Origin: a virus
IMG/VR virus record: IMGVR_UViG_3300017659_000001
Reading direction: 5' to 3' (one strand)
Length of the DNA: 53,456 nucleotides
A program made the translations under genes and the position numbers. Under the pieces are notes generated by a model that saw only the letters and a list, made by a program, of their open reading frames with translations, did not search any database and was not told the origin of the DNA. Positions 4,104 to 37,270 of this stretch are shown one piece after another; the first letter of the stretch is position 1; each line of letters begins with the position of its first letter.

Positions 4104-4695
4104 CCTGCACGACTGGATCACCCAACAAATCGACCGCCGCGAAGGCCTCGCCAAGCGCGCCGCTCACTACGGCCGACCCGACTGGCCACAACCCGCCACC
4201 GCCGTCGTCGACACCGGTGAAGACTGGCCCATCACCACCGAAGCCGGACCGATCGCCGAACACATCAGCGACAACGACCCGGCCGCCGTGCTCCGCCGGT
4301 GCGCCGCCGACCGGAAGATCCTTACCATCCACGCCCCCGCCGGCGGCAACTACGACCCGTACGCCTGCGACGGATGCGGCATCGACAGCGAGTACGGCCA
4401 CGAAGTCCGGCACACCAACGACTGCGAAACCCTTCAGGCCCTGGCCGAGGGGTACGGGCTCACCGAGGAGCAGCGCGCGGAGTTGGACCGGCCCGAGCCA
4501 GAGCCGCGTCAACGCCCGCTCGGCGGGGGCTTCATCACCGACGCGCTCGCCGAGGCCATGTACGGGAAGCTGATCGCCACGTTCGTCAACGCTCGCCCGC
4601 TGGAGCCGACACCCGTCGAGAAGGCGATCACCATCCTCGGCCCGGAGTTGAAGAAGATCAGCGGGTACGTGCCCATCGCCAAGGAGCAGCCGTAG
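4096..4695 (+). CDS. DUF6221-like protein (family recalled from memory)
   Basis: ORF track. LHDWITQQIDRREGLAKRAA...DPAAVLRRCAADRKIL...CDGCG...CETLQALAEGYG parallels the gene at 4850..5311. Confidence 0.7.
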   Translation: MPDLHDWITQQIDRREGLAKRAAHYGRPDWPQPATAVVDTGEDWPITTEAGPIAEHISDNDPAAVLRRCAADRKILTIHAPAGGNYDPYACDGCGIDSEYGHEVRHTNDCETLQALAEGYGLTEEQRAELDRPEPEPRQRPLGGGFITDALAEAMYGKLIATFVNARPLEPTPVEKAITILGPELKKISGYVPIAKEQP

Positions 4696-4780
4696 CCGCG
4701 TTGTCAGACCCGCCACGTACGCTGCACCCGCTGCCCGCGTTCCCGCTGGCTCGCGACAGGCAGCGCTGCCCCGCACAACA

Positions 4781-4815
4781 CAGCGCCCCGACCGTCAACC
4801 CCGGCCGGGGCGCTG
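4781..4815. terminator. Bidirectional hairpin between convergent genes (10-bp perfect stem)
   Basis: cagcgccccg...cggggcgctg, read directly. Confidence 0.6.
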
Positions 4816-4849
4816 CTGCGTTGCGGGGATCAACCCCAGGTGGTGTCGC

Positions 4850-5311
4850 TCACGGTGCCCACTCCTCTGCCTCGTAGCCAGGGCGGTCAGCGTACGCCGA
4901 CGCGAGCAGGCGCAGCGTCTTGCAGGGGAACTCCTGATCACAGGTGGCGCACTCGAACCCTTTCGCGTCCGGCGTGTCCCACTTGGGCCCCGGTCGCTTG
5001 TAGTGCCAGCGCACGATCTTCTGCTTGGCGTCGATCTCCCGCAGCACCCGAGCCGGATCATGCGCAGCGATGAACGCCCGGTCCGCGTCGCTCACGTGCA
5101 AGCCCCACGCGTCGTGGCCCCAGCCCGCCAGCACCTCGACAAGGTCACGACCCTCGTAGCCGTCGTGCCCCACGCGGACGAGGGTGGGCCCGTTCTGGTC
5201 CCACACGTCCGTCTCCGGGGTCCACTCCCATGGCCCCGGAGTGGCGGCCCGCGCGATCCGTTCGTCCTCGTCAAGCTGGGCCGTCAGCCACACAAGATCC
5301 ACGCCGCTCAC
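4850..5311 (-). CDS. DUF6221-like protein (153 aa)
   Basis: GTG 5311 in the frame of ORF 4850..5623, with a GTGA overlap on 5308..5595. LVWLTAQLDEDERIARAA...DPARVLREIDAKQKIV...LLASAYADRPGYEAEEW. Confidence 0.75.
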   Translation of the reverse strand: MSGVDLVWLTAQLDEDERIARAATPGPWEWTPETDVWDQNGPTLVRVGHDGYEGRDLVEVLAGWGHDAWGLHVSDADRAFIAAHDPARVLREIDAKQKIVRWHYKRPGPKWDTPDAKGFECATCDQEFPCKTLRLLASAYADRPGYEAEEWAP

Positions 5312-5595
5312 TCCTCGGTCTTCCTTGGCCGGTTCTTCCCCGACCCCGAGTAGCCCTTCACGATGTCCTGCACCGTGCTGAAGCTGATGTCGAGATCCGC
5401 GCCAACGGTGCGCAGCGACGCGCCCGGCCGTGCGAGCAGCTCTTGCACCGCCTGCTGCCGCGCCTCCTTGAGCCCTTTGTTCTGACCCGGCAGGGCCTTC
5501 AGTACTTCGCCGAGGGCGCGCGCTCTCTCGGCTGGGTCGGCGATCTCCTTGAGCGCGTCGATGGCATCGAACACCCGTTGCGCCTCCTCCGTCAC
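5308..5595 (-). CDS. HTH DNA-binding protein (95 aa)
   Basis: ORF track. C-terminal ASLRTVGADLDISFSTVQDIVKG. Palindrome in its upstream region. Confidence 0.75.
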   Translation of the reverse strand: MTEEAQRVFDAIDALKEIADPAERARALGEVLKALPGQNKGLKEARQQAVQELLARPGASLRTVGADLDISFSTVQDIVKGYSGSGKNRPRKTEE

Positions 5596-5632
5596 ACCCG
5601 GCCCCTTCTCTCGGGCGGGCCACTGGCCAAAG

Positions 5633-5651
5633 TGTAGGGGGTTCCCCTACA
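5633..5651. promoter_or_regulatory. Perfect palindrome TGTAGGGG-gtt-CCCCTACA in a divergent promoter region
   Basis: Read directly, 38 nt upstream of the 5595 start codon. Confidence 0.5.
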
Positions 5652-5759
5652 GTGCTGGAAGTGGCACCGCGCTACTGACGCAAGAAGCCCCCGGCCCGGC
5701 GCTGCGAACGCCACATGGACCGGGGGCGCCCACCTTCAACCGTGACGAAGAGGCAGGCA

Positions 5760-5987
5760 ATGCCCGAGAGTATCGATCAACCCGCCCAGCAGCCCACCCC
5801 CGCGCTCGACGCCTACGCCGCCGCATCCCAGAACTGCCGCGACATCGCCACCGAAGTCGGCATCCGCAACTGCGACGACGACCCCAACTGGCGCGCCGCC
5901 GAACGCGACGCCAACACCCGCTTCGACGAGGCCATCACCGCCGGACACAACGCCGACGAGGTCCTGAAGGCGGGGCGGGCCAAGTGA
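5760..5987 (+). CDS. Hypothetical protein (75 aa)
   Basis: ATG 5760 in ORF 5715..5987, preceded by GAAGAGG. Confidence 0.55.
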   Translation: MPESIDQPAQQPTPALDAYAAASQNCRDIATEVGIRNCDDDPNWRAAERDANTRFDEAITAGHNADEVLKAGRAK

Positions 5988-6133
5988 GCGAGCAGCCCGA
6001 GTGCGACCTGACGCCGCAGCCGAACCAGATCCTGAGCGAGCCCGCCACCGTCGCCGCCTGCCAACAGGACTACGCCGACGGCGCCGACGTCCGCCAGACC
6101 ATGGCGCAGCAGGAAGCCCAGGTGCGCCGCTGA
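5984..6133 (+). CDS. Hypothetical protein (49 aa)
   Basis: GTG 5984 with a GTGA overlap, in the frame of ORF 5549..6133. Confidence 0.4.
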   Translation: MSEQPECDLTPQPNQILSEPATVAACQQDYADGADVRQTMAQQEAQVRR

Positions 6134-6333
6134 TGCCGGACACCTTCAAGGGCGAGTGGCACCGGCCCCGCAACAGCAAGCACCACGACCGCCAAAGCGG
6201 CCACTCACAACGCCAACTCCAAGACCGCGCCTCGTTCGACAACGAACCCGCGACCGGCTGCGGCGCCCTCTTCCTCCTGCTCCTGGCCGCCCTCGCCACA
6301 GCCGCAGCAGCCATCGGGCTCGCCCTCACCTGA
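6133..6333 (+). CDS. Tail-anchored small membrane protein (66 aa)
   Basis: ATG 6133 in ORF 6001..6333. C-terminal GALFLLLLAALATAAAAIGLAL. Confidence 0.5.
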   Translation: MPDTFKGEWHRPRNSKHHDRQSGHSQRQLQDRASFDNEPATGCGALFLLLLAALATAAAAIGLALT

Positions 6334-6345
6334 CCGCCCAGACCG

Positions 6346-6379
6346 CCGGGCCCCGCGACAATCCCCCCGCGGGGCCCGG
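6346..6379 (+). terminator. GC hairpin (12-bp perfect stem)
   Basis: ccgggccccgcg-acaatccccc-cgcggggcccgg, read directly. Confidence 0.55.
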
Positions 6380-6405
6380 CCCATCTCCCGCCACCGGAGA
6401 CCACC

Positions 6406-7200
6406 GTGAAGACCCTGCTGCAACGCCTCCGACACCGCGCGACGCCCCACCCGGGACGCCCGTCCCACACCGCGTCTCACCGCGTCCCATGGTGGGTGCG
6501 CTGGTTCACCAACGCGGGACGCCCCATCGTCGCCGTCGTCGTCCTCATCATGTGCGCCCCCGGCGAGCACCACCTCGCCAAGCTCGCCGGATGGGACGGG
6601 CGTCTCGCCTGGGGCATGGCCGCCGTCCTCGCCGCCTACGCGGGCATCGCAGCGTCCGTCGCGTCCAACCGGCCGGCCAAGTCGCCAGGCAAGGTGAGCG
6701 CGGTCGTCGGTGCGTTCGTCTCACTCGGTGCGGCGATGGCGGCTCAGCCCGTCTCACACCTGTTCGTCACCGGCTGGTTCTCCGCTGATCCGCGGCCCCC
6801 GGCGCTGCTTGTCGTGGTCGTCTCGTGCGTCCCGCCGCTGGTGTTCGGGCATCTGCTGCACCTCGCCGCGACCCCGGTCGCGCGCGCCGCTGAGACGGCC
6901 GTTGCCGAGCCTGCAACGCAGGCCGCGACGCCCGCCCCAGCACTGCGTCCCCGTCAGCCGGTCGTACCGCCGGGGGCCCGGCTGCTGCCCATCGTCTCCG
7001 CCGACGATGAGACGGACGCCAGCAACCCTGAGACGCACCGCTTCCTCACCACGCGCGAGGTCGCCATCCGCTACGGCAAGACCGTCTCAACGGTCCGCAC
7101 ATGGAAGAACCGGGGACAGATCGTGCCCGCGTTCATCGACCCGACGCGCGGCGCCATGTACGACCCCGAGACGCTGCCCAGCGCAGCCGCGGTCGGGTGA
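6406..7200 (+). CDS. Polytopic membrane protein (DUF2637-like, recalled from memory) with C-terminal excisionase/MerR-type HTH
   Basis: ORF track. Multiple hydrophobic helices. C-terminal LTTREVAIRYGKTVSTVRTWKNRG. Confidence 0.8.
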   Translation: MKTLLQRLRHRATPHPGRPSHTASHRVPWWVRWFTNAGRPIVAVVVLIMCAPGEHHLAKLAGWDGRLAWGMAAVLAAYAGIAASVASNRPAKSPGKVSAVVGAFVSLGAAMAAQPVSHLFVTGWFSADPRPPALLVVVVSCVPPLVFGHLLHLAATPVARAAETAVAEPATQAATPAPALRPRQPVVPPGARLLPIVSADDETDASNPETHRFLTTREVAIRYGKTVSTVRTWKNRGQIVPAFIDPTRGAMYDPETLPSAAAVG

Positions 7201-7205
7201 GACGC

Positions 7206-7679
7206 GTGCCTGAGACGGGCGACTGGTGGAACGACCTCTACCGCGACGACGCCACGAAGCCCGCCAAGCAGCCCCCGGCCGACGACGAACCCGACGACGC
7301 CCCGGATGGGCCCGGCTGGTTCGCCCCCCAGCCCGACTACTACCCCCACCCCCACCTGCCCGCCGCGCTCACCCACGCACCCGAACGCGCAGCAGCCGCA
7401 CTCAGCCCGAAGACCCGCGCCGCGCTGTACAACATCAGCGCCGCCGCAGCCGGATGGGGCCTCGGCCTCTACCACCAGTGCGCGCATGCCATCGCCGACT
7501 GCGGCCAGCAGACCAGCACCGCAGGCGGCCTCACCCTCGGCATCGGCGCCTGCCTCCTCATCGCCCACCTGTGGGACCGGCGCACCCGCCACTGGTGGCC
7601 CGGCATCGCCTGGGCCGCCCGCATCCCCCTCGCCACCACCGTCGTCGCGCTCGCCCTCTGGGCGCCCGCAGCAGCCTGA
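7206..7679 (+). CDS. Membrane protein (157 aa)
   Basis: GTG 7206 in ORF 7101..7679. N-terminal GDWWNDLY, Pro/Asp-rich linker, three hydrophobic segments. Confidence 0.65.
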   Translation: MPETGDWWNDLYRDDATKPAKQPPADDEPDDAPDGPGWFAPQPDYYPHPHLPAALTHAPERAAAALSPKTRAALYNISAAAAGWGLGLYHQCAHAIADCGQQTSTAGGLTLGIGACLLIAHLWDRRTRHWWPGIAWAARIPLATTVVALALWAPAAA

Positions 7680-7693
7680 CCAGGAGACCCCTA

Positions 7694-8227
7694 GTGATCA
7701 CGCAAGTCATCGCCGCCGCCCCGGCCATCAGCGTCGAGGGCGGCCGCATCCTCGGCTCCGTCGGCTCCGGCGGTATCGCGACCGCGCTCACAGTGATCCT
7801 CGTCGCCGGGATCCGCGAGCCGAAGGGCGGCGGCGGAGCAGCGCCCGCCATCGGGAAAGGAGGCAAGGCCGGCGGAGGCGGCGGCGGGAAGAAGAGCCGC
7901 ATCCGCAGGCGGCTGACCAGCGACCAAGCCCAGTGGACGGGTATCGCGGCGGGGACCTTCTACATGACCGCCGGGTCGATCTGGACGATTGGCCGGAGTC
8001 TGTCCGACGCCTACGCCGGGATGATCACCAACGGTGGGTGGGGAGAGGCCGGGATGGGTGCGGCGTCGCTGGTCCTCGCCGCGATCATGTATTTCGTTGA
8101 GCTGGCCCCGGGGAAGGCCGCGCTCACGGGCATCATCGCGGCCGGGGTATGGGCGCAGTCAGGCGGGGTCTGGGGTCTTCCGCAGGCGTTGATCCTGACC
8201 GGCGGGCATGCGATCGGCCTCACCTAA
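7694..8227 (+). CDS. Gly-rich polytopic membrane protein (177 aa)
   Basis: GTG 7694 in ORF 7226..8227. GGGGAAPAIGKGGKAGGGGGGKK loop between hydrophobic segments. Confidence 0.65.
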   Translation: MITQVIAAAPAISVEGGRILGSVGSGGIATALTVILVAGIREPKGGGGAAPAIGKGGKAGGGGGGKKSRIRRRLTSDQAQWTGIAAGTFYMTAGSIWTIGRSLSDAYAGMITNGGWGEAGMGAASLVLAAIMYFVELAPGKAALTGIIAAGVWAQSGGVWGLPQALILTGGHAIGLT

Positions 8228-8895
8228 TGAAGATCGTTAAGAGGGCAGGGGAGCGGCTCCCCCCATGGCTCACCGCCGCACTCCGCCCGATCCTCACCGT
8301 CCACGGCGCCGGCACCTCCCTCATCGAAGGCTCCCGCGCCCTGCTGCGCCGCGGCTGGGACCTGTTCGGCGAGTACGTCGACGGCTGGCAGCGGTACGCA
8401 GTCCTCGCAGCCGGCGTGTACGCGGCCGCGTACACGGCCAGCCACGCCCGGCACCTGCCCCCGTTCGCCGTGCCCGGCGCGGTCGTCGTCTGGTGCACGG
8501 CCGCCTGGTGGCACGCCCCGCCAACCCCCGTCGAGCCCGAGGAGTCTGCCCCGGCCAGCGCCCCCGCCGACAGCTTCGTCCTGTGGCTCCTCGACCTCAT
8601 GGGCGACCGGCCCGGCATCCACCTCCGCGAGCTCTACCCGGCGATGCGCCAGCTGCCTGGCCACGAGGGCCGCGACAACGCCCAGCTGCGGGCCGCCCTG
8701 CGCACCCTCGGTATCCCCGTCGAACGCACCCTCCGGCTCGGCCTCGTAGCGGGCCGCTCGGGGGTCGCCAGGGCCGCTCTCGAAGCCCTCCCCTCCCCCC
8801 ATGGAGAGCCGGGTGGAGATTTCGATGGAGACGCAGGTCAGGACACGGATTCTCCGGCCGGAGAGCAGGTTGTAGAGCGAGTGGAGAGCGCCTGA
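8227..8895 (+). CDS. Membrane protein with a possible C-terminal winged-helix domain (222 aa)
   Basis: ATG 8227 (TAATG overlap) in ORF 8149..8895. Two hydrophobic helices, then FVLWLLDLMGDRPGIHLRELY...LRAALRTLGIPV. Confidence 0.7.
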   Translation: MKIVKRAGERLPPWLTAALRPILTVHGAGTSLIEGSRALLRRGWDLFGEYVDGWQRYAVLAAGVYAAAYTASHARHLPPFAVPGAVVVWCTAAWWHAPPTPVEPEESAPASAPADSFVLWLLDLMGDRPGIHLRELYPAMRQLPGHEGRDNAQLRAALRTLGIPVERTLRLGLVAGRSGVARAALEALPSPHGEPGGDFDGDAGQDTDSPAGEQVVERVESA

Positions 8896-9146
8896 TGCCG
8901 TACGTGTACCGCTGCCGAAGATGCCGCGCCTCCAGCCCACCAGGCCCGCGCCATGACGCGGAGGCGTACCGGCAGCAGCACCGCGACGAGCGACACGGCG
9001 GCCTGGTCCCCGACGGCGAAACCCTCGACCGTGTGCCCGGCAGCACCCCGGATCCGGACGGCCGGTACGTGAGCACTACGGCGGTGGTCGGCGGTCTGGC
9101 GCTCCTGGCGCTGGCCTCGGTGATCGCGCGGGCCCTCGGCCACTGA
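8895..9146 (+). CDS. Zinc-ribbon-like, tail-anchored small protein (83 aa)
   Basis: ATG 8895 in ORF 8265..9146. CRRCR near the N-terminus. C-terminal VVGGLALLALASVIA. Confidence 0.6.
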   Translation: MPYVYRCRRCRASSPPGPRHDAEAYRQQHRDERHGGLVPDGETLDRVPGSTPDPDGRYVSTTAVVGGLALLALASVIARALGH

Positions 9147-9157
9147 CCCCACAAGCC

Positions 9158-9200
9158 CCGGGCGGGCCGCTCCATCCGCAAGAGAGCGCGGCCCGCCCGG
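9158..9200 (+). terminator. GC hairpin (13-bp perfect stem, 17-nt loop)
   Basis: ccgggcgggccgc...gcggcccgcccgg, read directly. Confidence 0.55.
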
Positions 9201-9232
9201 TCCCATCCCAACCACGAGACAGGAGCACCATC

Positions 9233-9403
9233 ATGCTCGGATTCGGCCACCAGGACGAGACCAGCAAACTCCGCGACACCGTCGACGAGCTACCCGCGCG
9301 CGTCGACCAGTGGACCGACGCCCAGCACGCCACGTTCACGACGCAGTCCGACCGCGCGATGCGCCAGCAGAACGGGGTCTCTGAGCCCGACGAGCTGACC
9401 TGA
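9233..9403 (+). CDS. Hypothetical protein (56 aa)
   Basis: Hand-translated: MLGFGHQDETSKLRDTVDELPARVDQWTDAQHATF.... AGGAG 7 nt upstream. Too short for the ORF track. Confidence 0.5.
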   Translation: MLGFGHQDETSKLRDTVDELPARVDQWTDAQHATFTTQSDRAMRQQNGVSEPDELT

Positions 9404-9430
9404 TCAGCACCACACCGGCACACTGAAGCC

Positions 9431-9464
9431 AGGCCTCGCCGCGCACCCCCCCTCGCGGCGGGGC
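9431..9464 (+). terminator. GC hairpin (12-bp stem with one G-U pair)
   Basis: ggcctcgccgcg...cgcggcggggcc, read directly. Confidence 0.4.
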
Positions 9465-9495
9465 CGCCGTACACGATCACTCCGAAAGGCCGCAC

Positions 9496-9708
9496 ATGAT
9501 CGACCGCAGTCTGTACGCCGACCTCGCGCCCGTCGCCGGTCCCCGCCGCACACCGCGACACGCTGCGGCCCGGCCGCGCCAGCACACGCCGATCGGAGCA
9601 CCCCGCAACCAGGCCGCGCAGGCACAGGCCATCGGCCGGCTGAAGCACGCCGACGGCTCGCCGAGGAAGCGGAAGGGGAAGCGGATCGCGTTCAACGCGT
9701 CCGTCTGA
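9496..9708 (+). CDS. Possible basic small protein (70 aa)
   Basis: ORF track. GAAAGG upstream. Arg/Pro-rich composition makes it uncertain. Confidence 0.35.
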   Translation: MIDRSLYADLAPVAGPRRTPRHAAARPRQHTPIGAPRNQAAQAQAIGRLKHADGSPRKRKGKRIAFNASV

Positions 9709-9722
9709 CACCGCAAGCACGG

Positions 9723-9753
9723 GGCCCCGCCGGGCAACTCGTCCGGCGGGGCC
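9723..9753 (+). terminator. GC hairpin (11-bp perfect stem, 9-nt loop)
   Basis: ggccccgccgg-gcaactcgt-ccggcggggcc, read directly. Confidence 0.55.
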
Positions 9754-9826
9754 TTCGCCATTTCCGCCCCCGGCCGCCAGCCGCCAGAGCTACGATCCCC
9801 CGCACACCGACAGTCCTGGGGGGACC

Positions 9827-10087
9827 ATGGCGAGTTACAGCGACGTACAGAAGGCCGTGCGCGTGGAGAAGCTCCGCATCTGGCTTGCGTGGCTGTGCGG
9901 GAACTTCATCCTGCTGATGATCGCGGTGGCGACGCAGCATGTGGCGGTCGTCAGCGTGGTGACGCTGGTGCTCCTCGTCGCGGGGTTCCTTGCGCTGACG
10001 GTGGCCCTGTTCCGGATGACGGGCGCCCTGAACCGGAAGGCCGATGCTGCGCGGCGTGAGGTGCTGGGGGACGACTACCCGGGCTGA
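9827..10087 (+). CDS. Two-TM membrane protein (86 aa), moron-like
   Basis: ORF track. IWLAWLCGNFILLMIAVA and VVSVVTLVLLVAGFLALTVALF. Flanked by hairpins. Confidence 0.7.
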   Translation: MASYSDVQKAVRVEKLRIWLAWLCGNFILLMIAVATQHVAVVSVVTLVLLVAGFLALTVALFRMTGALNRKADAARREVLGDDYPG

Positions 10088-10238
10088 GCGTCACCCGTTC
10101 GTGGTGGTGACAGGCCCTGCGGATGGGGCGTAGCGTCCCGGGGAGCGGCAGTCGGGGGGCGCCCCGGCATCGCAGTGCTGGGCGGTGGGTTGGAGCTGCG
10201 AACTTCCCCCACCCCGGGCTGCCGCGTGAACGTTGATC

Positions 10239-10268
10239 GGCCCCGCTCCGGGTTGTCCGGGCGGGGCC
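10239..10268. terminator. Hairpin between convergent genes
   Basis: ggccccgc(t)ccgg-gttgt-ccgggcggggcc, read directly. Confidence 0.5.
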
Positions 10269-10284
10269 GTCGTCATGCGGTGGG

Positions 10285-10512
10285 TTACTCGCTGGGGACG
10301 CAGGCGCCCATCAGGATGAACCGCCGCCAGTTGGGCCGGGGCTTGGCAACCCATCCGCAGGTGACGCAGAGGCCTTTCCAGTCGGGCGGCCCGAGGTCGG
10401 GTGCCCGGCCGGGGTCGCGGCCGGTCCAGAGGTGGCCTTTCGGTAGGCACCAGCGGGCGTATCCGTATGCCTGTCCGGCTGCCTCTCGGAGGGCGGTGAC
10501 GGGGCTGGTCAC
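10285..10512 (-). CDS. Cys-containing small protein (75 aa), third gene of the minus-strand operon
   Basis: GTG 10512 with a GTGA overlap on 10509..10709, in the frame of ORF 10285..11520. ARWC...LCVTCGW...GAC. Confidence 0.5.
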   Translation of the reverse strand: MTSPVTALREAAGQAYGYARWCLPKGHLWTGRDPGRAPDLGPPDWKGLCVTCGWVAKPRPNWRRFILMGACVPSE

Positions 10513-10709
10513 GCGGGCTCCTCGCCCGGGCGCACCGGGCCCGCAAGCGGGAACCGGGTGCGCGGAGGGCCGAACGGTACGACACGCTTGCCCGGTTCCA
10601 GAGGCGGCTGGGACTCGGCGATGAGGGCGAAGTGCTCGGCTTCGAGGTAAAGGGTGTCGACGACGCTGGGCTCCTCGCCGGGCTGGGGCTCGGGCTGCTG
10701 CTCGCTCAT
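10509..10709 (-). CDS. Acidic/Pro-rich small protein (66 aa)
   Basis: ORF track. ATGA overlap with the upstream gene. Confidence 0.55.
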   Translation of the reverse strand: MSEQQPEPQPGEEPSVVDTLYLEAEHFALIAESQPPLEPGKRVVPFGPPRTRFPLAGPVRPGEEPA

Positions 10710-10957
10710 GCGGTCTGCTCCTTCTTCGGCCGGCCACCCTTGCGCGCGCGGCGCTCGGCCAACTCCTCCTCGGCTGCGGCCAGCTCGGCGCGTTCGTGCT
10801 CGGTGCCGTGCTGCTCGATGAACGTGCGGACGTGGTCGACGAGGTCGGCGCTGCGGTCAACGCCTTGTCGCGCGGCGGCTGTTCCGTAGGCGTTCCACAT
10901 GCGGCGGGGGATGCGGAAGCGGGTGGCGAAGGTGTGGTCGGTGGTGTCGTCTGCCAT
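10706..10957 (-). CDS. Ribbon-helix-helix-like DNA-binding protein (83 aa)
   Basis: ATG 10957 in ORF 10706..10975, preceded by AAAGG. N-terminal beta-strand-like FATRFRIPRRMWNAYG followed by helices. Confidence 0.6.
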   Translation of the reverse strand: MADDTTDHTFATRFRIPRRMWNAYGTAAARQGVDRSADLVDHVRTFIEQHGTEHERAELAAAEEELAERRARKGGRPKKEQTA

Positions 10958-10993
10958 GCCTTTATGTTCCCACACGGATTTCTCAGCGCAACC

Positions 10994-11037
10994 CCTTGTG
11001 TGGGTACACGGTTACGCGTTACTGTGTACCCACAAGG
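10994..11037. promoter_or_regulatory. Large imperfect inverted repeat in a divergent intergenic region
   Basis: CCTTGTG(tg)GGTACAC-N14-GTGTACCCACAAGG, read directly. Lies between the 10957 (-) and 11059 (+) starts. Confidence 0.55.
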
Positions 11038-11058
11038 AAGCGAACGAGGGGGAACCAA

Positions 11059-11400
11059 ATGAACGCCGCAGCCACCACCCACCACACCAACTGCCTCCGC
11101 TGCGGCCGCAAGCTCACCTCGACGAAGTCCACGGCCACCGGCTACGGCCCCAAGTGCGCCGCCCACATCCGCCACTCCGCCGCCGACACCACCGACTACA
11201 AGGCCCACCAGATCACCTCCGCCCGCGAGCTCATCGAAGACGGCGCCATCGTCCCCCTCCGCAGCGTGGTGTTCATCGCCGTCAGCACCGACGGGACCGA
11301 GACCTACAAGACCGCCCCCACCGCCTGCAACTGCCCCGCCGGCCTGAAGGGCTCGCGCTGCTACCACCAGCTCGCCGCCCGCCTCCTGCTCGCGGCCTGA
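11059..11400 (+). CDS. Zinc-finger protein: CxxCGRxL...GxGPxC N-terminal motif (DUF6011-like, from memory) plus SWIM-type CxC...CxH
   Basis: ATG 11059 in ORF 10996..11400. CLRCGRKLTSTKSTATGYGPKC and CNCPAGLKGSRCYH. Confidence 0.75.
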   Translation: MNAAATTHHTNCLRCGRKLTSTKSTATGYGPKCAAHIRHSAADTTDYKAHQITSARELIEDGAIVPLRSVVFIAVSTDGTETYKTAPTACNCPAGLKGSRCYHQLAARLLLAA

Positions 11401-11412
11401 GAGGACAACCCA

Positions 11413-11580
11413 ATGAAGATCTCTATCACCCTGACCATCGACGTTGACCCCGAGCAGTGGGCCGACAACTACGGCATCGAGAAGAGCGACGTGCGTGGGG
11501 ACGTCAAGACCTACGTGCACAACGCGGTCCAGCAGGCTCCTGGCATGCAGGACGTCGACGCCGAGGTTCGCGTCCGCTGA
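11413..11580 (+). CDS. Hypothetical protein (55 aa)
   Basis: Hand-translated: MKISITLTIDVDPEQWADNYGIEKSDVRGDVKTYVHNAVQQ.... Too short for the ORF track. Confidence 0.55.
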   Translation: MKISITLTIDVDPEQWADNYGIEKSDVRGDVKTYVHNAVQQAPGMQDVDAEVRVR

Positions 11581-11730
11581 ACCGCTCGCCCGGCTCTACG
11601 GGGCCGGGCCACCGTCACCGTCCTCTACCCCGTCGACTGCCCCATCGCCCGCCGCGTCCAACTCCTCGCCGACGCGCTGGCCGCCTGACCGCCCTACGCT
11701 GAACCCGCCACCACCAACCAGGGAGAACCC

Positions 11731-11931
11731 ATGCTCATCGCCTACGACTTCGGCGACTCCGTCCACGTCCTCGACGTCGACGAGTTCGGTGTCGCACTGC
11801 CCGACTCGGCCGACGTACTGCCGCTCGACGGCGACCGGGACGAGACGCTCGACAGCGCCGGGTACCGCGTCGTCGGCGACTGGACGCTCCAGGGCGAAGC
11901 GGAGGGCGTCACCGTCGAGCGCCACGTCTGA
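11731..11931 (+). CDS. Acidic small protein (66 aa)
   Basis: ORF track. GGGAG upstream. Confidence 0.6.
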   Translation: MLIAYDFGDSVHVLDVDEFGVALPDSADVLPLDGDRDETLDSAGYRVVGDWTLQGEAEGVTVERHV

Positions 11932-12067
11932 CCCCGCGCACGCCGAAGGCCCCGATCCCGCCGCCAGGGAGATCGAGGCCTTCACCACGCGCGCACCGTC
12001 CACCAGTTGCACTCGCCGTTACCATCAAACCACGACAGACGGTAACGCAACCAGGGAGGCGACAACC

Positions 12068-12577
12068 ATGGCCAACCCCAACCAGCACTCCCGCGACGGC
12101 CGAGGCCACTACGTCCGCACCCCCGAAAGCGCACGCCGCGACGCCCGCGCCGCCGAACTCCGCGCCGAAGGCCTGAGCTACCAGCAAATCGGCGACGAAC
12201 TCGGCATCGACAAAACCAACGCCCGCATGGCCGTACGCCGCGCCCTCCGCGAAATCGTCCAAGGCCCCGCCGAAAACCTCCTCGCCCTCCACATCGAACG
12301 CCTCGAAACCCTCTACGAGCGGGCCACGGAAGTCATGGAGCGCCAGCACGTTGTCGTCTCCTACGGACAGATCATGAAAGACGAGGACGGCAACCCACTC
12401 ATCGACTCCGGGCCCGAACTCGCCGCCATCCGCGAGGCACGCGCCACCCTCGAATCGTTCCGCAAGCTCGCCGGCCTCGACGCCCCCTCCCGCGTGAGCG
12501 TCGACGCACAGCAACTCGGCGACGAGATCGCCGCTCTCCTCAACCGCGCCACCACCGATGACGGCACCAGCGGCTGA
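12068..12577 (+). CDS. terS: Terminase small subunit (HTH)
   Basis: ATG 12068 in ORF 11444..12577. LSYQQIGDELGIDKTNARMAVRRAL. Overlaps the TerL start. Confidence 0.75.
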   Translation: MANPNQHSRDGRGHYVRTPESARRDARAAELRAEGLSYQQIGDELGIDKTNARMAVRRALREIVQGPAENLLALHIERLETLYERATEVMERQHVVVSYGQIMKDEDGNPLIDSGPELAAIREARATLESFRKLAGLDAPSRVSVDAQQLGDEIAALLNRATTDDGTSG

Positions 12578-14063
12578 CGTCGCGCGGATCCGCGCCCAAG
12601 TCGACCAGCTCGTACGCGCCGGCGACACCCGGCAGCTGAAGCTCCTGCGCGATCAGTTGAAGACCCTCGTCGACCGCAACGCGCTCGCCGGCCGGACCGC
12701 GAAGTACGGGGCACATCCGGTCCGCTGGGTGGAGGAGCGCCTTAACCAGACCGTGTGGTCGAAGCAGCGGGAAATCCTCAACGCCGTCCGCGACCACCGC
12801 CGCACCGCGGTCCGCTCCGGGCATGGCGTCGGCAAGAGCTGGACGGCCGCGCTGATCGCCTGCTGGTGGCTCGACACCCACCCGCCTGGCGAAGCCTTCG
12901 TCGTCAGCACGGCGCCCACCTTCTCCCAGGTGCGGGCCATCCTCTGGCGGTACATCCGCAAGCACCACCGCGCCGGCCAGCTCGCAGGCCGCGTCAACCA
13001 GACCGAATGGCTGATCGACGACGAACTCGTCGGCTACGGCCGCAAGCCCGCCGACACCGACGCGGACGGCTTCCAGGGCATCCACGCCCGCTACGTCCTC
13101 GTCATCCTCGACGAGGCGTGCGGCATCCCCGAGCAGTTGTGGACGGCGGCGGACGCGCTGACGACCGGGCCGGACTGCCGGATCATCGCGATCGGAAACC
13201 CGGACAACGCCGCGAGCCACTTCCGCCGCGTGTGCATTCCCGGCTCCGGTTGGCATCAGCTGTCCATCAGCGCCTTCGACTCCCCGAACCTGACCGGAGA
13301 GGACGTGCCGCAGGACATGGCCGCCGCGCTCGTCGGCCGCGAGTGGGTGGAGGAGAAGGGGCGCGAGTGGGGCACAGAGAACCCGGTCTACCGCAGCAAG
13401 GTCCTCGGAGAGTTCTCCGAAGACGCCCCGAACAAGGTCGTCCGCGGCTCCGACATCGCGAAGTGCCGGGCCCCCCTGGAGAAGCCGCTGGCCGCTGACA
13501 AGCTCGTCCCCGTCGAGCTTGGCGTCGACGTCGGTGGCGGCGGAGACGAGACCGTCATCCGCGAGCGCCGCGGTGCGCGCGCCGGCCGGGAGTGGCGGGC
13601 CCACACGGACCGCCCGGAGAAGATTGCTCCGCTCGTGTTGCAGGCCCTTACGGAGTCCGGCGCGACCGCAGTGAAAGTCGACAGCATCGGCATCGGCTTC
13701 GGTGTGATCGGAGAACTCCGCAACCTCGCATCGCAGGGCAAGCACAAGGCTCAGATCGTCGCGGTGAACGTGTCGGAGAAGTCCAGCCAGCCGGACAAGT
13801 TCAAGAACCTGCGGGCGGAGATCTGGTGGGAGATCGGCCGCGGCTTGTCGGAGCGGCAGGGCTGGGATCTCAGCGAGATGGCGAACGCGGACACGACGGT
13901 GGCGCAGATGCTGGAGCCGTTGTGGGAGGTCGATGCGCAGGGCCGGATCTTTGTGGAGCCGAAGGACGAGATTCGGAAGCGGCTCGGCAGGTCGCCGGAT
14001 AACGCGGATGCGCTCCTTTTGGCATATTTTTCCGGCGCCCGAACTCGGGTGCGCTGGCTGTGA
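12558..14063 (+). CDS. terL: Terminase large subunit
   Basis: ORF track. Walker A GHGVGKSW, Walker B VLVILDEA. Nuclease-domain GVDVGGGGDE. Sits upstream of the portal. Confidence 0.95.
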   Translation: MTAPAADVARIRAQVDQLVRAGDTRQLKLLRDQLKTLVDRNALAGRTAKYGAHPVRWVEERLNQTVWSKQREILNAVRDHRRTAVRSGHGVGKSWTAALIACWWLDTHPPGEAFVVSTAPTFSQVRAILWRYIRKHHRAGQLAGRVNQTEWLIDDELVGYGRKPADTDADGFQGIHARYVLVILDEACGIPEQLWTAADALTTGPDCRIIAIGNPDNAASHFRRVCIPGSGWHQLSISAFDSPNLTGEDVPQDMAAALVGREWVEEKGREWGTENPVYRSKVLGEFSEDAPNKVVRGSDIAKCRAPLEKPLAADKLVPVELGVDVGGGGDETVIRERRGARAGREWRAHTDRPEKIAPLVLQALTESGATAVKVDSIGIGFGVIGELRNLASQGKHKAQIVAVNVSEKSSQPDKFKNLRAEIWWEIGRGLSERQGWDLSEMANADTTVAQMLEPLWEVDAQGRIFVEPKDEIRKRLGRSPDNADALLLAYFSGARTRVRWL

Positions 14064-14080
14064 TTTCTGGAGGATTTGCG

Positions 14081-14260
14081 GTGAAGTGGTCCAGTCTTGC
14101 CATTCGACTGAAGAATTTGCGGTCAGCTAGCCTGTTGACAGGAGGATTTACACTCATCTCAACTGGGCTCGGGATGCACTTCGGCCTCTGGATCGGCCTG
14201 CTCATCGCCGGAGTGCTCGCCGTCGCCTACGAGTGGCACCTGAGCCGCCCGCCGAACTGA
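14081..14260 (+). CDS. Small membrane protein in a visibly GC-poor patch (59 aa; the ORF is open from 14060)
   Basis: GGAGGA 6 nt before GTG 14081. FGLWIGLLIAGVLAVAY. Confidence 0.5.
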   Translation: MKWSSLAIRLKNLRSASLLTGGFTLISTGLGMHFGLWIGLLIAGVLAVAYEWHLSRPPN

Positions 14261-14276
14261 CAGCAAGGGAGGGACC

Positions 14277-16334
14277 GTGGGCAGAAGCTTCCTCGGATCC
14301 CTCGCCAACGCCGCAGGAAGCCTCCGCACCCGCGAAACCTCCACCCCCGTCCCCTTCGCCTCCCGCGCGCAGTCCTACGGCCGCGGGCTCTTCGGCAGCC
14401 AGCGCGGCACCACCGCCGAACTCGGCTCCATGGGCGCCGTCTCCACCGTCTTCGCCATCGTCAACCGCACCGCCAAGGCCGAGGCCGGCGTCGAGTGGGG
14501 CCTGTACCGCAAGGCGAAGAGCGGGAAGAAGGAAGACCGCACCCCGGTCACCGCGCACGCCGCGCTCGACCTGTGGAACCGGCCGAACGCCTTCTACACG
14601 CAGTCCGTATTCGTCGAAGCCGGGGCGCAGCACAAGCAGCTCACCGGGGAGCAGTGGTGGGTGATCGCCCGGGACGAGCGGGTGAACCTGCCGCTGGAGA
14701 TGTGGGTGGTGCGCCCGGACCGGATCCGCCCGGTGCCGGACCCGGAGCAGTTCCTGCTGGGCTACATGTACACCGGCCCGGACGGGCAGGAAGTGGCGCT
14801 CGGCAAGGACGACGTCATCTTCACGCGGACCCCGCACCCCACGGACCCGTACCGCGGCATCGGCCCGGTGCAGGCCCTCCTCACCGACCTCGACGCGGTG
14901 CGCTACTCGGCCGAGTGGAACCGGAACTTCTTCCTCAACTCGGCTGAGCCGGGCGGGATCATCGAAGTCCCTCAGGGACTCAGCGATCCCGACTTCGACC
15001 AGCTCCGCGACCGGTGGAACGAGCAGCACAAGGGCATCGCCAACGCACACCGTGTGGCGATCCTCGAACACGGCACGTGGAAAGACCGCAAGTTCACGCA
15101 GCGGGACATGCAGTTCGTCGAACTCCGCAACGTCTCCCGCGAGGTCATCCGCGAGGCGTTCGGCTTCCCGAAGCCCATGCTCGGCGCCGTCGACGACGTC
15201 AACCGCGCCAACGGCGACTCCGGCGAGCGGATGTTCGCCCGCTGGCTCGTCGTCCCCGACCTTGAAGCCGTCAAGGACGCGCTGAACAACCAGCTCCTCC
15301 CGCTGTACGGCGCCACAGCGCAGGGCCTGGAGTTCGACTTCGTCAACCCTGTCCCCGACGACGTGGCGACCGAGGCCACACAGCTGACCGCGCGGGCGAA
15401 CGCGGCGAAGGCGCTCGGCGAGACCGGCCTGTGGGACGCGGACGACATCCTCTCCGCCGTCGGCCTGCCGGAGATGCGGCGCGCAGCCGCCCCGGCCGCG
15501 CCGGCAGCGTCGTGGGATGAGGCGGTCGCCGGGCTCACCCGCGGCGCCCCGGTGCTGCGCAACGCCGCCACCGACCCCCTCGACCAGATGCAGAAGGATC
15601 ACGAGAGCGCCCTCACCGTGCTCCTCACCGACTTCGCGCCGATCACCGACGAGTGGATCGACCAGCTCGGCACACAGATCGAGCAGGCCATCGACGACGA
15701 TGACACGGCCGCCCTCGCCACGCTCACCCTCGACTCCACCCGGGCCGCCGACACCGTGCGGACCGCGCTCGGAGCAGCAGCGCAGCAGGCCGCGGACCGC
15801 ACGGTCGACGAAGCCCGCAGACAGGGCGCGACCGTGACGGCCCCGCAGGTTGCCGAGTCGCTGACCGCGCGCCTGCGCCCCGGGCAGATCGTCAACTTCG
15901 GTGACGAACTGGCCGCGATCGCCACCGCCGTCGCCACGCTCATCGCTTCCGGTCTCGCAGCGTCGGCGGCTCAGGAAGCCGTCCGCCGCTTCCTGCCCGG
16001 CGTATCCGGCTCGCACGTCGCGAACGCCGTGAAGAACACGCTGCGGACGCTGAAGAACGCGTTCCGTCGCGACCAGCTCGGCGGCGCTGTCCACCGGGCG
16101 CAGAACGTGGGCCGGATCGCCACCCTCGAAGCCGCGCCGGTCGCCCGGTGGGTGGCCAGCGAAAAAAACGACGGCAACGCCTGCGCCCCGTGCCGCGCCA
16201 TCGACGGCCACGAGTTCACGTCGCTTGCCGATGTCACGGCCGCCTACGGGGCCGGCCCGTATCACGCGTGTGAGGGCGGTATCCGCTGCCGGGGAACGGT
16301 GACGGCCTTCTGGGACACGACGGGAGACATCTGA
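14277..16334 (+). CDS. Portal protein fused to a Mu F/SPP1 gp7-like minor head domain
   Basis: ORF track, 685 aa, directly after the terminase. C-terminal NDGNACAPCRAIDGHEF...YHACEGGIRCRG is typical of MuF-like head proteins. Confidence 0.9.
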   Translation: MGRSFLGSLANAAGSLRTRETSTPVPFASRAQSYGRGLFGSQRGTTAELGSMGAVSTVFAIVNRTAKAEAGVEWGLYRKAKSGKKEDRTPVTAHAALDLWNRPNAFYTQSVFVEAGAQHKQLTGEQWWVIARDERVNLPLEMWVVRPDRIRPVPDPEQFLLGYMYTGPDGQEVALGKDDVIFTRTPHPTDPYRGIGPVQALLTDLDAVRYSAEWNRNFFLNSAEPGGIIEVPQGLSDPDFDQLRDRWNEQHKGIANAHRVAILEHGTWKDRKFTQRDMQFVELRNVSREVIREAFGFPKPMLGAVDDVNRANGDSGERMFARWLVVPDLEAVKDALNNQLLPLYGATAQGLEFDFVNPVPDDVATEATQLTARANAAKALGETGLWDADDILSAVGLPEMRRAAAPAAPAASWDEAVAGLTRGAPVLRNAATDPLDQMQKDHESALTVLLTDFAPITDEWIDQLGTQIEQAIDDDDTAALATLTLDSTRAADTVRTALGAAAQQAADRTVDEARRQGATVTAPQVAESLTARLRPGQIVNFGDELAAIATAVATLIASGLAASAAQEAVRRFLPGVSGSHVANAVKNTLRTLKNAFRRDQLGGAVHRAQNVGRIATLEAAPVARWVASEKNDGNACAPCRAIDGHEFTSLADVTAAYGAGPYHACEGGIRCRGTVTAFWDTTGDI

Positions 16335-17352: not shown

Positions 17353-18711
17353 GTGGCACCCACTCTGACCGTCCCGCGCAACGCCGACGAGCTGGAGGAC
17401 ATGCTCGGCGACACCTCGAACATCGCGAAGATCGCCGAGACGCCGGACACGTTCAAAAACTTCATCCTCGACTACGCCAAGGGCCAGGCCCGCAGCGACG
17501 CATCCATCGAGGCGCAGATCAAGGAGGAGACGCAGCGGCAGTTCGCCGAGATCCTCAAGAACGAGCAGATCGACGGGATCAACCGCCTCAACCTCGCCCC
17601 GACCTGGGACAACGGCGCGCCTGCGAACCGGTCGAAGTACTACAACCGCAAGGCGGCGGGCGCCGGCCTCGACAAGCAGTTCGGGAACTGGGCCGACTAC
17701 CTCGTCGCGACGTGGGCGGGGTCGAACACCGCGGAAGCTTTCGCGGCACGCTCGGAGATCAAGAAGATCCAGAACGCGTTCGGGTCGACCGTCCCCAGCG
17801 ACGGCGGGTTTCTGATCCCGGAGTCGCTGCGCAGCGAGCTGCTTTCGGTGCCGATGGAGAAGGGCCTCGTCCGCTCCCGCGCCCGCGTCGTGCCCATGGA
17901 AACGCTCATGGTGCCGTACCCGACGATCGACTCCACGTCGAACGCGACCAGCGTCCACGGCGGCGTCACCGGCTACTGGACCGAAGAGGGCGGCACCCTC
18001 ACCGACTCGGCTCCGCAGTTCGGCCGCATCGAGCTCCTGGCCAAGAAGTTGACGCTCTACTCGGAGATCCCCAACGAGCTGTTCCAGGACTCGCTGATCT
18101 CGCTGGAGCAGTTCATGTCGGTGTCCTACCCCGAGGCGCTGATGTGGTTCGAGGACAACGCGTTCATCGACGGCACCGGTGTCGGCCAGCCGCTCGGCTT
18201 CCTCAACGCCCCGGCCGCCGTGTCCATCGCGAAGGAGTCGGGGCAGACCGCCGCGACGATCCTGTGGGAGAACATCATCAAGGCGTACAGCCGGATGCTC
18301 CCCAGCTCCCTCGGCTCCGCAGTGTGGGTCGCGCACATCGACACGCTCCCGCAGCTCCTCACGATGGCGCTGTCCGTGGGCACCGGCGGCTCCGCGGTCT
18401 GGGTCGGCGACGGCGGCGGCGAAGGCGCCCCGCCCGTGCGGATCCTCGGCCGTCCGGTCATCTTCACCGAGAAGGTGTCCAGCGTCGGCACCGCCGGTGA
18501 CATCAACTTCGTGGACTTCGGCTACTACCTCATCGGTGACCGCCAGGCCATGCAGATGAGCTCCAGCACCGAGTTCAAGTTCGGCAACGACAAGACGGCC
18601 ATGAGGGTCATCGAGCGCGTCGACGGCACCCCGTGGATCAAGTCCGCGATCACCCCCCGCAAGGGCTCCAACACCCTGTCGCCGTTCGTGAAGGTCGCGA
18701 CCCGTTCCTGA
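17353..18711 (+). CDS. Major capsid protein (HK97-type)
   Basis: ORF track, 452 aa. AAGGAGG upstream. Follows the protease. Confidence 0.9.
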   Translation: MAPTLTVPRNADELEDMLGDTSNIAKIAETPDTFKNFILDYAKGQARSDASIEAQIKEETQRQFAEILKNEQIDGINRLNLAPTWDNGAPANRSKYYNRKAAGAGLDKQFGNWADYLVATWAGSNTAEAFAARSEIKKIQNAFGSTVPSDGGFLIPESLRSELLSVPMEKGLVRSRARVVPMETLMVPYPTIDSTSNATSVHGGVTGYWTEEGGTLTDSAPQFGRIELLAKKLTLYSEIPNELFQDSLISLEQFMSVSYPEALMWFEDNAFIDGTGVGQPLGFLNAPAAVSIAKESGQTAATILWENIIKAYSRMLPSSLGSAVWVAHIDTLPQLLTMALSVGTGGSAVWVGDGGGEGAPPVRILGRPVIFTEKVSSVGTAGDINFVDFGYYLIGDRQAMQMSSSTEFKFGNDKTAMRVIERVDGTPWIKSAITPRKGSNTLSPFVKVATRS

Positions 18712-18793
18712 CCCGGCCGGCCCCGGCCAGCAGTAACGCCCTGGCCGGGGTCCGTTCCGAAGAGGCACTCAACCCCCTCAAGGAGGGCATCTC

Positions 18794-19225
18794 ATGGAAG
18801 CACTCGGACGCACGGTGAACGTCATCTCGTTGGCGGACGGCGTGTACATCAGCCTGCGGGACTGCGGCGGTGTCGCCTTCTCCTGCTACCTGGCCGCCGC
18901 GGCGGGCGATACCTACACCCTCGTCGAGGCGAAGGACGCATCCGGGACCGGCGCGCAGAACCTCGCCGCGGTCACCCGCTACTACACGTGCACCGGCGAC
19001 GGCACCGACGCGTGGACGAAGCGCACCCAGGCTGCGGCGGCGACGGTCGTCACGGCGGCCGCGGCCACACAGAACGCGATGTGGGTGGAGATCGACGGCA
19101 CGCAGCTGTCTGACGACTACGACTACGTCAAGCTCACCTCGACCGGCGCCGGCCGGGTCGAGGCGATCGCCCGCGACCTGGTCGTGCAGCGCGCCCCCGC
19201 CAACCTGCCTGCGCTGGGGGCCTGA
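18794..19225 (+). CDS. Head-module protein, function unknown (143 aa)
   Basis: ORF track. AAGGAGGG upstream. Confidence 0.75.
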   Translation: MEALGRTVNVISLADGVYISLRDCGGVAFSCYLAAAAGDTYTLVEAKDASGTGAQNLAAVTRYYTCTGDGTDAWTKRTQAAAATVVTAAAATQNAMWVEIDGTQLSDDYDYVKLTSTGAGRVEAIARDLVVQRAPANLPALGA

Positions 19226-32523: not shown

Positions 32524-32721
32524 GTGGCTACCTACGTGATCACAGGGAAGAGCCCGAGTGGGGAGCCGTTGGTGTCGGTGCAGGTCGCTGCGATCAATCA
32601 GGAGCAGCACGTGGTGGACGACATCGACGTGGTCGGTGCGGTCCGCGGGTTTCTGCTGGGGCTGCCTGAGGTGGGGTCGGTGGTGGCGCAGCGGTACGAG
32701 CAGGTCATCACCGTCATATGA
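32524..32721 (+). CDS. Hypothetical protein (65 aa)
   Basis: GTG 32524 in ORF 32125..32721, after GAGAGGGG. Confidence 0.5.
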   Translation: MATYVITGKSPSGEPLVSVQVAAINQEQHVVDDIDVVGAVRGFLLGLPEVGSVVAQRYEQVITVI

Positions 32722-32735
32722 GAGAGAAGGCTGAC

Positions 32736-37081: not shown

Positions 37082-37270
37082 GCGGCCGCCCCCTCCCCTG
37101 GGGGGTGGCTTCCGCCGCCAGCGCCCGCCCCAGGCGCCGGCGGCGGGCCTTGGCCAGAGGGCGACGGCGGGTGAGATGTTCACACTTCACACAAAGTTTC
37201 CGTGGATATATGCAGGCCGCACCCTTCCTGTTACCCACGGTTCCCGTGTTGACTGCCATTCAGTAAGCGC

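Follow-up and report, generated by a model that had tools for sequence, protein, structure and literature searches.

Introduction

Plasmids of Streptomyces spread through the mycelium with the help of Spd proteins, the mechanism of which is poorly understood despite decades of work. SpdB2 is an oligomeric membrane protein with four transmembrane (TM) helices that binds double-stranded DNA and forms pores (Thoma et al. 2015, PMC4447253), and spdB3-spd79-spdB2 are needed for the spreading of pSVH1 (PMC4447253). These genes, like spdB3-orf80-spdB2 of pSG5 (PMC11600335), encode translationally coupled small membrane proteins, and the Spd proteins of both plasmids are proposed to form a multiprotein DNA-translocation complex in the membrane. 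spd genes diverge so fast that their homologues are often unassignable (PMC4447253). SpdB2 homologues in the actinophages VWB and phiC31 were noted by Thoma et al. 2015 (citing Smith 1999 and Van Dessel 2005; PMC4447253), and the idea that phage SpdB2 homologues spread phage DNA was published in the same paper. Described here is a five-gene cassette in a viral DNA stretch of 53,456 nucleotides (IMG/VR record IMGVR_UViG_3300017659_000001; the whole stretch is hereafter called the window). As judged from homology and gene order, the cassette is very probably the phage-carried counterpart of the membrane-protein operon found together with spdB2 on pSNA1-type plasmids and on elements resembling the integrative and conjugative elements of actinomycetes (AICEs). 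The cassette genes were labelled g1 to g5 in order, coordinates are those of the window unless another record is named, and compared loci carry L-numbers.

Organisation of the cassette

The cassette comprises five open reading frames (ORFs).

6406..7200, plus strand: g1 (slot-1 gene), four TM helices, Pro/Ala linker, C-terminal MerR/excisionase-type winged helix-turn-helix (HTH) domain
7206..7679, plus strand: g2, Pro-rich acidic N-terminal region, three C-terminal TM segments, basic RRTRHWW loop
7694..8227, plus strand: g3, polytopic membrane protein rich in Gly, Gly/Lys-rich loop following TM1
8227..8895, plus strand: g4, two moderately hydrophobic helices, winged-helix domain (residues 113-186), acidic tail
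8895..9146, plus strand: g5, 83 amino acids (aa), tail-anchored, zinc-finger-type motif C-x2-C-x18-H-x4-H

All five ORFs proposed in the initial annotation were recovered with the same boundaries. Over the span 6406-9146 they have a GC content at third codon positions (GC3) of 0.86-0.91, which is of the coding type (the window has about 70% GC). The genes are closely packed, with a 5-nt gap between g1 and g2, a 14-nt gap containing a GGAGA ribosome-binding site between g2 and g3, a TAATG overlap at the g3/g4 junction and a TGATG overlap at the g4/g5 junction. The coupled operon claimed earlier is thereby supported, packed or overlapping genes being the Spd-type arrangement. TM helices were counted by Kyte-Doolittle hydropathy for all five genes and in AlphaFold2 (AF2) models for g1 and g4. 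Hydrophobic helices were present in every product, as had been proposed, those of g4 being only moderately hydrophobic.

Like the pSVH1 and pSG5 genes, the cassette encodes translationally coupled small membrane proteins, and g1 matches the four-TM, DNA-binding SpdB2 of these plasmids in architecture. Spd79/Orf80 (~80 aa) and g5 (83 aa) are alike in size and placement, a likeness drawn by description. The order differs, spdB2 being last in pSVH1 whereas the SpdB2-like slot is first in the phage cassette.

Homologous operons on plasmids and AICE-like elements

When the concatenated cassette was used as a tblastn query, adjacent and co-linear homologues of g2 and g3 were found on 15 small Streptomyces plasmids. 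By blastp, g2, g3 and g5 match neighbouring plasmid genes at 38-55% identity with E values down to 1e-50. The g2 product is 52% identical (E 4e-41) to that of ORF 13762-14403 of plasmid CP108176, g3 is 55% identical to its plasmid homologue (E 9e-50) and is the best-conserved core gene, and g5 is 43% identical to an 88-aa plasmid protein (E 1e-14). In jackhmmer searches g4 joined a plasmid family of 298/299-aa proteins (E ~1e-54).

The operon of pSNA1 (S. natalensis, NC_002149) consists of a gene for a 285-aa HTH membrane protein, a 55-aa ORF, then g2-like, g3-like, frameshifted g4-like and g5-like genes. Its first gene is deposited as "SPDB2 protein" (CAB62260), and the sps-containing gene of the plasmid is deposited as "SPDA protein". 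The g4 homologue (pSNA1 4378-5138) is split over two frames, through either a frameshift or a sequencing error in this 2000-era record, and RefSeq therefore annotates nothing there. Shared between the pSNA1 operon and the cassette are the order (polytopic HTH protein, optional small ORF, g2, g3, g4, g5), the sequence homology of g2-g5 and the tight packing or overlap of the genes. The two differ in that phage g1 is not homologous to pSNA1 SpdB2, and in that pSNA1-type elements carry a divergent GntR repressor, Rep and SpdA/sps, all of which the phage lacks. Plasmid homologues of the core lie downstream of a divergent GntR (KorA/TraR-type) regulator gene, the product of which in pSNA1 is 46% identical to KorA of pIJ101. 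Module-bearing plasmids also carry Rep, SpdA and SpdA-binding sps palindromes.

A scan of one genome per species yielded 33 Streptomyces loci in two context classes. Phage-type loci have a g3 identity of at least 56% and carry g2-g3-g4-g5 without a GntR gene; several have portal, terminase or capsid genes inside the 10-kb flank. Plasmid/AICE-type loci have a g3 identity of 32-56% and are accompanied by a divergent GntR gene and by Rep, SpdA and DUF2637 genes, with an integrase-like gene near the module in two of them (L037 and L039).

It is considered highly probable from these comparisons that g2-g5 are homologous to, and co-linear with, the spdB2-linked operon of plasmids and AICEs, and that the cassette as a whole is its homologue. 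The kinship with Spd modules suggested by the initial annotation is in this way upheld by direct homology (g2-g5) and by synteny with the SPDB2 operon of pSNA1. What appears to be new is the whole spdB2-linked operon, which plasmids and AICE-like elements have in common with a sizeable temperate-phage clade; the literature on VWB and phiC31 notes a single SpdB2-like gene only. In the searchable literature no description was found of the four-gene core with a variable SpdB2-like slot across phages, rolling-circle plasmids and AICE-like elements, of the prevalence of the cassette in an uncultured temperate-phage clade, or of the four g2-g5 families. Four conserved, unnamed protein families with clear motifs are now defined, and better annotation becomes possible for hundreds of proteins of Streptomyces that are now called "hypothetical proteins" or "MerR family regulators".

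The variable slot-1 protein

After a basic N-terminus, the g1 product has four clear TM helices, which a disordered Pro/Ala linker joins to a compact domain at the C-terminus. In the AF2 model the helices lie at residues 29-155, and the C-terminal domain has a predicted local distance difference test (pLDDT) score of 91-95. This domain superposes on BmrR, NmlR, RacA and BldC at 1.6-2.0 A over ~45 residues (Foldseek). HTH_17 and MerR_1 (PF12728, PF13411) match 18 of 18 g1-family members (best E 2.7e-7), the window g1 taken alone falling below the Pfam cut-off (17.8 bits vs 21.6), and phrog_2474 matches g1 with an E value of 4e-6. Family profiles and structure comparison therefore agree with the MerR/excisionase-type HTH that had been assigned to g1. 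The resemblance to DUF2637 proposed in the same annotation was not found: DUF2637 (PF10935) gave no match to g1 at E <= 1 and none to the 18 family members, and hhalign of the g1 family against the DUF2637 alignment returned a probability of 0.1%. Membership of g1 in DUF2637 was rejected on this Pfam scan and profile-profile comparison.

RacA of B. subtilis and BldC of Streptomyces resemble the g1 domain and, like it, lack the MerR dimerisation coiled coil. Both are soluble, whereas g1 joins the domain to a four-helix integral membrane part. This is the SpdB2-type layout, four TM helices plus a cytoplasmic MerR-type winged HTH, without detectable SpdB2 homology, and the most fitting description of g1 is that of an analogue of SpdB2 in architecture and position. 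Its 429 database homologues are annotated only as MerR or excisionase-type HTH proteins.

Across approximately 45 phage-type loci, slot 1 holds a g1-type protein in four and a true DUF2637 protein in six, with at least 10 other types elsewhere. The slot-1 product is always a polytopic membrane protein and has a C-terminal HTH where examined. In L010 it combines a strong DUF2637 match (E 4e-39) with an HTH, and in L004 the DUF2637 match is borderline. Proteins of the g1 type also occur without the g2-g5 core, in phage mu1/6 and in prophages L074 and L075; gp30 of mu1/6 is a solitary g1 homologue encoded directly before the packaging genes.

The conserved core proteins

Two strong TM segments and one weak segment were seen in g2 by hydropathy. 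The three TM segments reported for this protein accordingly stand, and the GDWWNDLY motif by which it had been characterised is not conserved in the family (67 loci by jackhmmer). Its conserved parts are the TM region and the RRTRHWW loop. In g3, two strong and two weak helices surround the Gly/Lys-rich loop. The g3 family was found in 69 loci by jackhmmer, and its 231 database homologues are all from Streptomyces and all unnamed.

The hydropathy of g4 is 1.55 for one segment and 1.11 for another. Residues 113-186 were modelled by AF2 with pLDDT 82-95 in the order H-b-H-H-b-b, and the top 30 Foldseek hits in the Protein Data Bank (PDB) were nearly all winged-helix proteins (histone H1, PafBC, forkhead, PadR, MarR, kleisin), every one at E > 0.1. 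The winged-helix-like C-terminus described earlier is consistent with this topology; the two TM segments described with it are only moderately hydrophobic. The acidic tail bears a conserved GDAGQxxDSP motif. The best viral match of g4 is VWB gp26 (Q6VY63), with an E value of 4.9e-6. According to the models, g1 and g4 are both predicted to carry DNA-binding folds facing the cytoplasm.

In g5, C7, C10, H29 and H34 are invariant across 60 homologues, and residues 62-78 form one strong C-terminal TM anchor (hydropathy 2.29), in agreement with the N-terminal CxxC pair and tail anchor first noticed in this protein. None of g2-g5 belongs to a named curated family in Pfam, NCBIfam or PADLOC, and g4 and g5 fall in PHROGs families that lack annotation.

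Distribution in phages

The window has the gene content of a temperate Streptomyces siphophage: it encodes the portal, an HK97-type capsid protein and the large terminase, and in addition a tyrosine integrase, exonucleases and a recombination directionality factor of the Gp3-like kind. By portal protein its nearest cultured relative is phage Dagobah (48% identity). Several homologues of window proteins sit on separate contigs of 50-57 kb, which makes it probable that the window is a complete phage genome, assembled separately, and not an integrated prophage. Within the window the cassette closes the early/middle region, and the terminase gene follows about 3.4 kb downstream.

After 29 viral contigs had been added from IMG/VR, the g2-g5 core was found with conserved order in the ~45 non-identical phage-type loci, 29 of which have portal, terminase or capsid genes within 10 kb. 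In a tblastn search of 50,697 phage records with the concatenated cassette, only the N-terminus of g1 was matched (by mu1/6 gp30 and by a "membrane protein" of phage Success). Among these sequenced phages a partial cassette is present in VWB only, and DUF2637 genes are present only in VWB and Gilgamesh. Such genes had been called atypical of phage early regions, which holds for sequenced phages, where they are rare, but not for this ~45-locus clade of uncultured phages and prophages, where they are standard.

This distribution bears on whether the cassette could be a passenger without function, acquired by recombination as a piece of a plasmid or AICE and giving the phage no benefit. Modules are exchanged between phages and AICEs, which also have integration sites in common, and the motor and repressor of the plasmid operon would have been left behind in such an exchange. 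Because the core is conserved, a passenger is nevertheless very improbable: all five ORFs are intact with coding-type GC3, the order of g2-g5 is kept in ~45 loci so diverged that g3 amino-acid identity ranges from 31 to 82%, the genomic position is always the same, the flanking hairpins co-evolve and the motif residues are invariant.

VWB gp24 belongs to DUF2637 and shares 69% identity with the protein encoded in slot 1 of prophage L010, and VWB gp26 is a member of the g4 family. Between them, VWB ORF 17801-18412 (203 aa) has a Pro-rich N-terminus and three TM segments, which is the g2 architecture. The annotated gp25 (17668-18918, 416 aa) is seemingly in the wrong frame, coding-type GC3 being seen in 17801-18412. 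No homologues of g2, g3 or g5 were detected in VWB. The gp24-gp26 region is upstream of the terminase gene, as in the window, and the window slot-1 protein differs from gp24 in family, being of the MerR-HTH type that it has in common with mu1/6 gp30.

The proteins of phiC31 gave no match to any probe, gp22-26 gave no profile matches, and the SpdB2 homologue mentioned in the literature was not identified among them. The N-terminus of phiC31 gp26 (37213-37368 of phiC31) resembles the HTH of the KorA-like GntR protein of pSNA1 (38% over 52 aa, E 4e-7); gp26 sits in the region to which the literature assigns plasmid-like genes.

In L074, a prophage in the chromosome of Streptomyces sp. NBC_00444, the stretch 6810-9068 of the locus encodes a g1 homologue and, after it, four membrane proteins that give no profile matches to g2-g4. 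One has the g2-like architecture of a Pro-rich N-terminus and three TM helices, another has a TM helix, a Gly/Lys loop and more TM helices as in g3, and a third has a hydrophobic hairpin and a C-terminal soluble domain as in g4. By its architecture this set looks like a hyper-diverged version of the cassette, and the occurrence of the same architectures in unrelated sequences is consistent with the published hyper-divergence of spd genes.

Proposed role in spread or establishment of phage DNA

The five proteins may come together as a membrane complex, its probable site being the septal or lateral membrane. The complex would bind double-stranded element DNA via the winged helices of g1 and g4, and would aid the passage of the phage genome between hyphal compartments and its establishment, as proposed for plasmid Spd proteins. 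As a result the whole mycelium, and not one compartment, would be infected or lysogenised. Without TraB any motor would have to come from the host, as an FtsK-type translocase, or else the complex would serve passively as pore and tether. By analogy with the plasmids, a role in intramycelial spread or establishment of phage DNA is tentatively favoured, though it falls short of being probable. The homology of the core to the plasmid operon suggests that phages borrowed plasmid machinery for moving DNA through hyphae. The matter bears on how a temperate phage lysogenises beyond the injected compartment in the compartmented, multi-genomic mycelium of Streptomyces, plasmids meeting an equivalent problem with their Spd proteins. 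Published speculation on phage DNA spreading via hyphae becomes directly testable on a defined and widespread gene set.

Several findings weigh against a role in spreading. Plasmid spreading requires TraB (PMC4447253); in pSVH1 it is also under TraR control, and the phage has neither. No TraB/FtsK-like protein was found in the window, as the initial annotation had stated: the sole canonical Walker A motif in a coding-type ORF belongs to the tape-measure protein, and tblastn of the window with three plasmid Tra candidates gave no match. A GntR repressor was found neither in the window nor in any phage-type locus, and the sps palindrome CGTCACGTGACG, which the control plasmids carry, does not occur in the window with one mismatch allowed. 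Neither g1-g5 nor the corresponding plasmid proteins showed similarity to SpdA, SpdB, orf66, KilB or Tra of pIJ101, and the SCP2* transfer-region genes (159 aa and 96 aa) beside a DUF2637 gene gave no profile match to the cassette. The g1 protein is not detectably homologous to SpdB2/DUF2637, and the "Spd" status of g2-g5 follows from their position in one operon with pSNA1 spdB2 and from their architecture. TM topology was derived from hydropathy and AF2 only, the TM segments of g4 being weak. The cassette lies just before the packaging genes, a position that a role linked to replication or packaging would fit equally well.

Such a role would be that of a membrane anchor, in which g1 and g4 tether replicating or concatemeric phage DNA with no transfer between compartments. 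The p16.7 protein of phage phi29 tethers phage DNA to the membrane in this manner. Two membrane-anchored DNA-binding folds are predicted in the cassette, one of them (in g1) resembling RacA, a chromosome-anchoring MerR-like protein. The terminase and portal genes always follow a few kb downstream of the cassette, the solitary g1 homologue of mu1/6 directly precedes the packaging genes, and an anchor needs no DNA motor, consistent with the missing TraB. spdB2 is also described, in a passage of PMC4170104 that cites the finding, as stabilising the linear plasmid SLP2, a maintenance-type effect. Most sequenced Streptomyces phages, however, replicate and package their DNA without these genes, and on plasmids a Kor-type repressor controls the operon, which occupies the transfer/spread position and is not beside rep. 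An anchoring role is on balance rather unlikely.

For the spreading role, the question of a motor was also addressed in the elements that carry the module. ORFs of at least 150 aa were scanned for a canonical Walker A motif, with pIJ101 Tra recovered as a control. No canonical P-loop ORF of this size was found in pSNA1 (complete) or in NZ_CP108187 (14,170 of 14,258 bp), and the module is present in both. Elsewhere the P-loop genes near the module were DnaB-like, UvrD, ABC, NB-ARC or IstB genes, and none was of the FtsK/TraB type in Pfam; three further P-loop proteins near the module, of 637-706 aa, could be assigned to no family. Since pSNA1 and NZ_CP108187 have no canonical P-loop ORF and none of the FtsK/TraB type was seen elsewhere, TraB-free working was retained as a possibility of low probability. 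It is quite improbable that the slot-1 protein and g2-g5 constitute a self-contained, TraB-free mover of double-stranded DNA between hyphal compartments, common to phages, rolling-circle plasmids and AICEs. If they did, viral genomes could spread through the mycelium independently of capsids, by a conjugation-like route of infection, and the module would be the entire transfer and spread machinery of pSNA1-type plasmids. The loci offer a natural experiment, in that a recognisable TraB-type motor accompanies the module in some and not in others, the DNA-binding membrane subunits are interchangeable, and the GntR repressor is missing from every phage-type locus examined.

Flanking hairpins and neighbouring genes

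The following features lie outside the five genes.

6345..6380, plus strand: 5' hairpin, 13-bp perfect stem, 10-nt loop, -33.5 kcal/mol, z -4.7
9158..9200, plus strand: 3' hairpin, 13-bp perfect stem, -35.2 kcal/mol, z -5.3
6008-6130: upstream ORF, 72% identical to L004 7937-8092
6133..6333, plus strand: small tail-anchored membrane protein, 66 aa, 59% identical to L004 8092-8271
5308..5595, minus strand: small divergent HTH_23 gene (Pfam HTH_23, E 4.9e-6)
32718-33632: endolysin, ~24 kb from the cassette

The g1 start codon comes 26 nt after the end of the 5' hairpin, and the 3' hairpin begins 11 nt past the g5 stop codon. Both rank within the three best perfect hairpins of the window, in which about eight similar GC-rich hairpins occur. 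The related phages L004 and L005 have hairpins at both equivalent positions with differing stem sequences, so that the pairing and not the sequence is maintained. A hairpin is also found directly 3' of g5 in L013, as in L004 and L005. With the 5' hairpin only 26 nt before g1, too short a distance for a promoter, the cassette is necessarily transcribed through the hairpin. The two strong hairpins proposed in the initial annotation are therefore real features of the locus; that they insulate the cassette is an interpretation. A consensus promoter/terminator scan of 4500-12600 returned zero sites, such a scan being uninformative for high-GC Streptomyces.

The hairpins also bear on a host-manipulation or exclusion function, in which the envelope or septum would be permeabilised to arrest growth, to block other phages or plasmids, or to prime lysis. 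A hairpin-bounded unit could be expressed alone in the manner of a moron, but no promoter fits between the 5' hairpin and g1. SpdB2 permeabilises membranes, transfer/spread genes act as toxic "kil" functions when unregulated (PMC4447253), growth is retarded in the zones known as pocks, and the plasmid operon is under a Kor-type repressor, all of which would suit a function of this kind. The fast-diversifying slot-1 gene is compatible with an arms race. Against it, the PADLOC defence models gave a single weak match, of the g1 HTH to mad1 (E 0.005), and none for g2-g5, and two DNA-binding domains and a zinc finger would be unexpected in a simple exclusion protein or holin. A lysis cassette was rejected, with no holin match in PHROG or Pfam among g1-g5 and with the endolysin and a small downstream ORF ~24 kb away. 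A host-manipulation or exclusion function is considered unlikely.

The tail-anchored protein encoded at 6133..6333 has the hydrophobic C-terminus GCGALFLLLLAALATAAAAIGLALT, and its gene is directly upstream of the 5' hairpin. This gene is probably in the same transcription unit as the cassette. Both this ORF and the one at 6008-6130 are conserved, and the membrane-protein set thus reaches past the boundary marked by the hairpin.

In L013, L015, L017, L018 and L029, minus-strand homologues of the HTH_23 gene occur 2.4-3.5 kb upstream of g3. The gene is a possible regulator of the cassette, analogous in position to plasmid KorA/TraR though not a GntR protein. The divergent intergenic region 5596-5714 contains an inverted repeat (5619-5665) with the core GTGTAGGGG...CCCCTACAG, which could be an operator.

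A perfect 22-bp palindrome, CGTGTACGCGGCCGCGTACACG, lies within g4 (8415-8436). It is the longest in the window, and its length was reached in 4% of Markov simulations. It was not found in 23 related loci, and was therefore set aside as a cis site and treated as incidental. A link to SpdA through the neighbouring DUF6011 ORF (10996-11400) was also rejected, the ORF not being SpdA-like and sps being missing. A palindrome with 18-nt arms (10999-11034) is located at the start of this ORF, in a divergent region. Elsewhere in the window, a 13-bp perfect hairpin at 49366-49403 has a stem sequence resembling those of the cassette hairpins, and a set of repeats, GGGCAGGA...CCCTAG, is present at 51123-51203.

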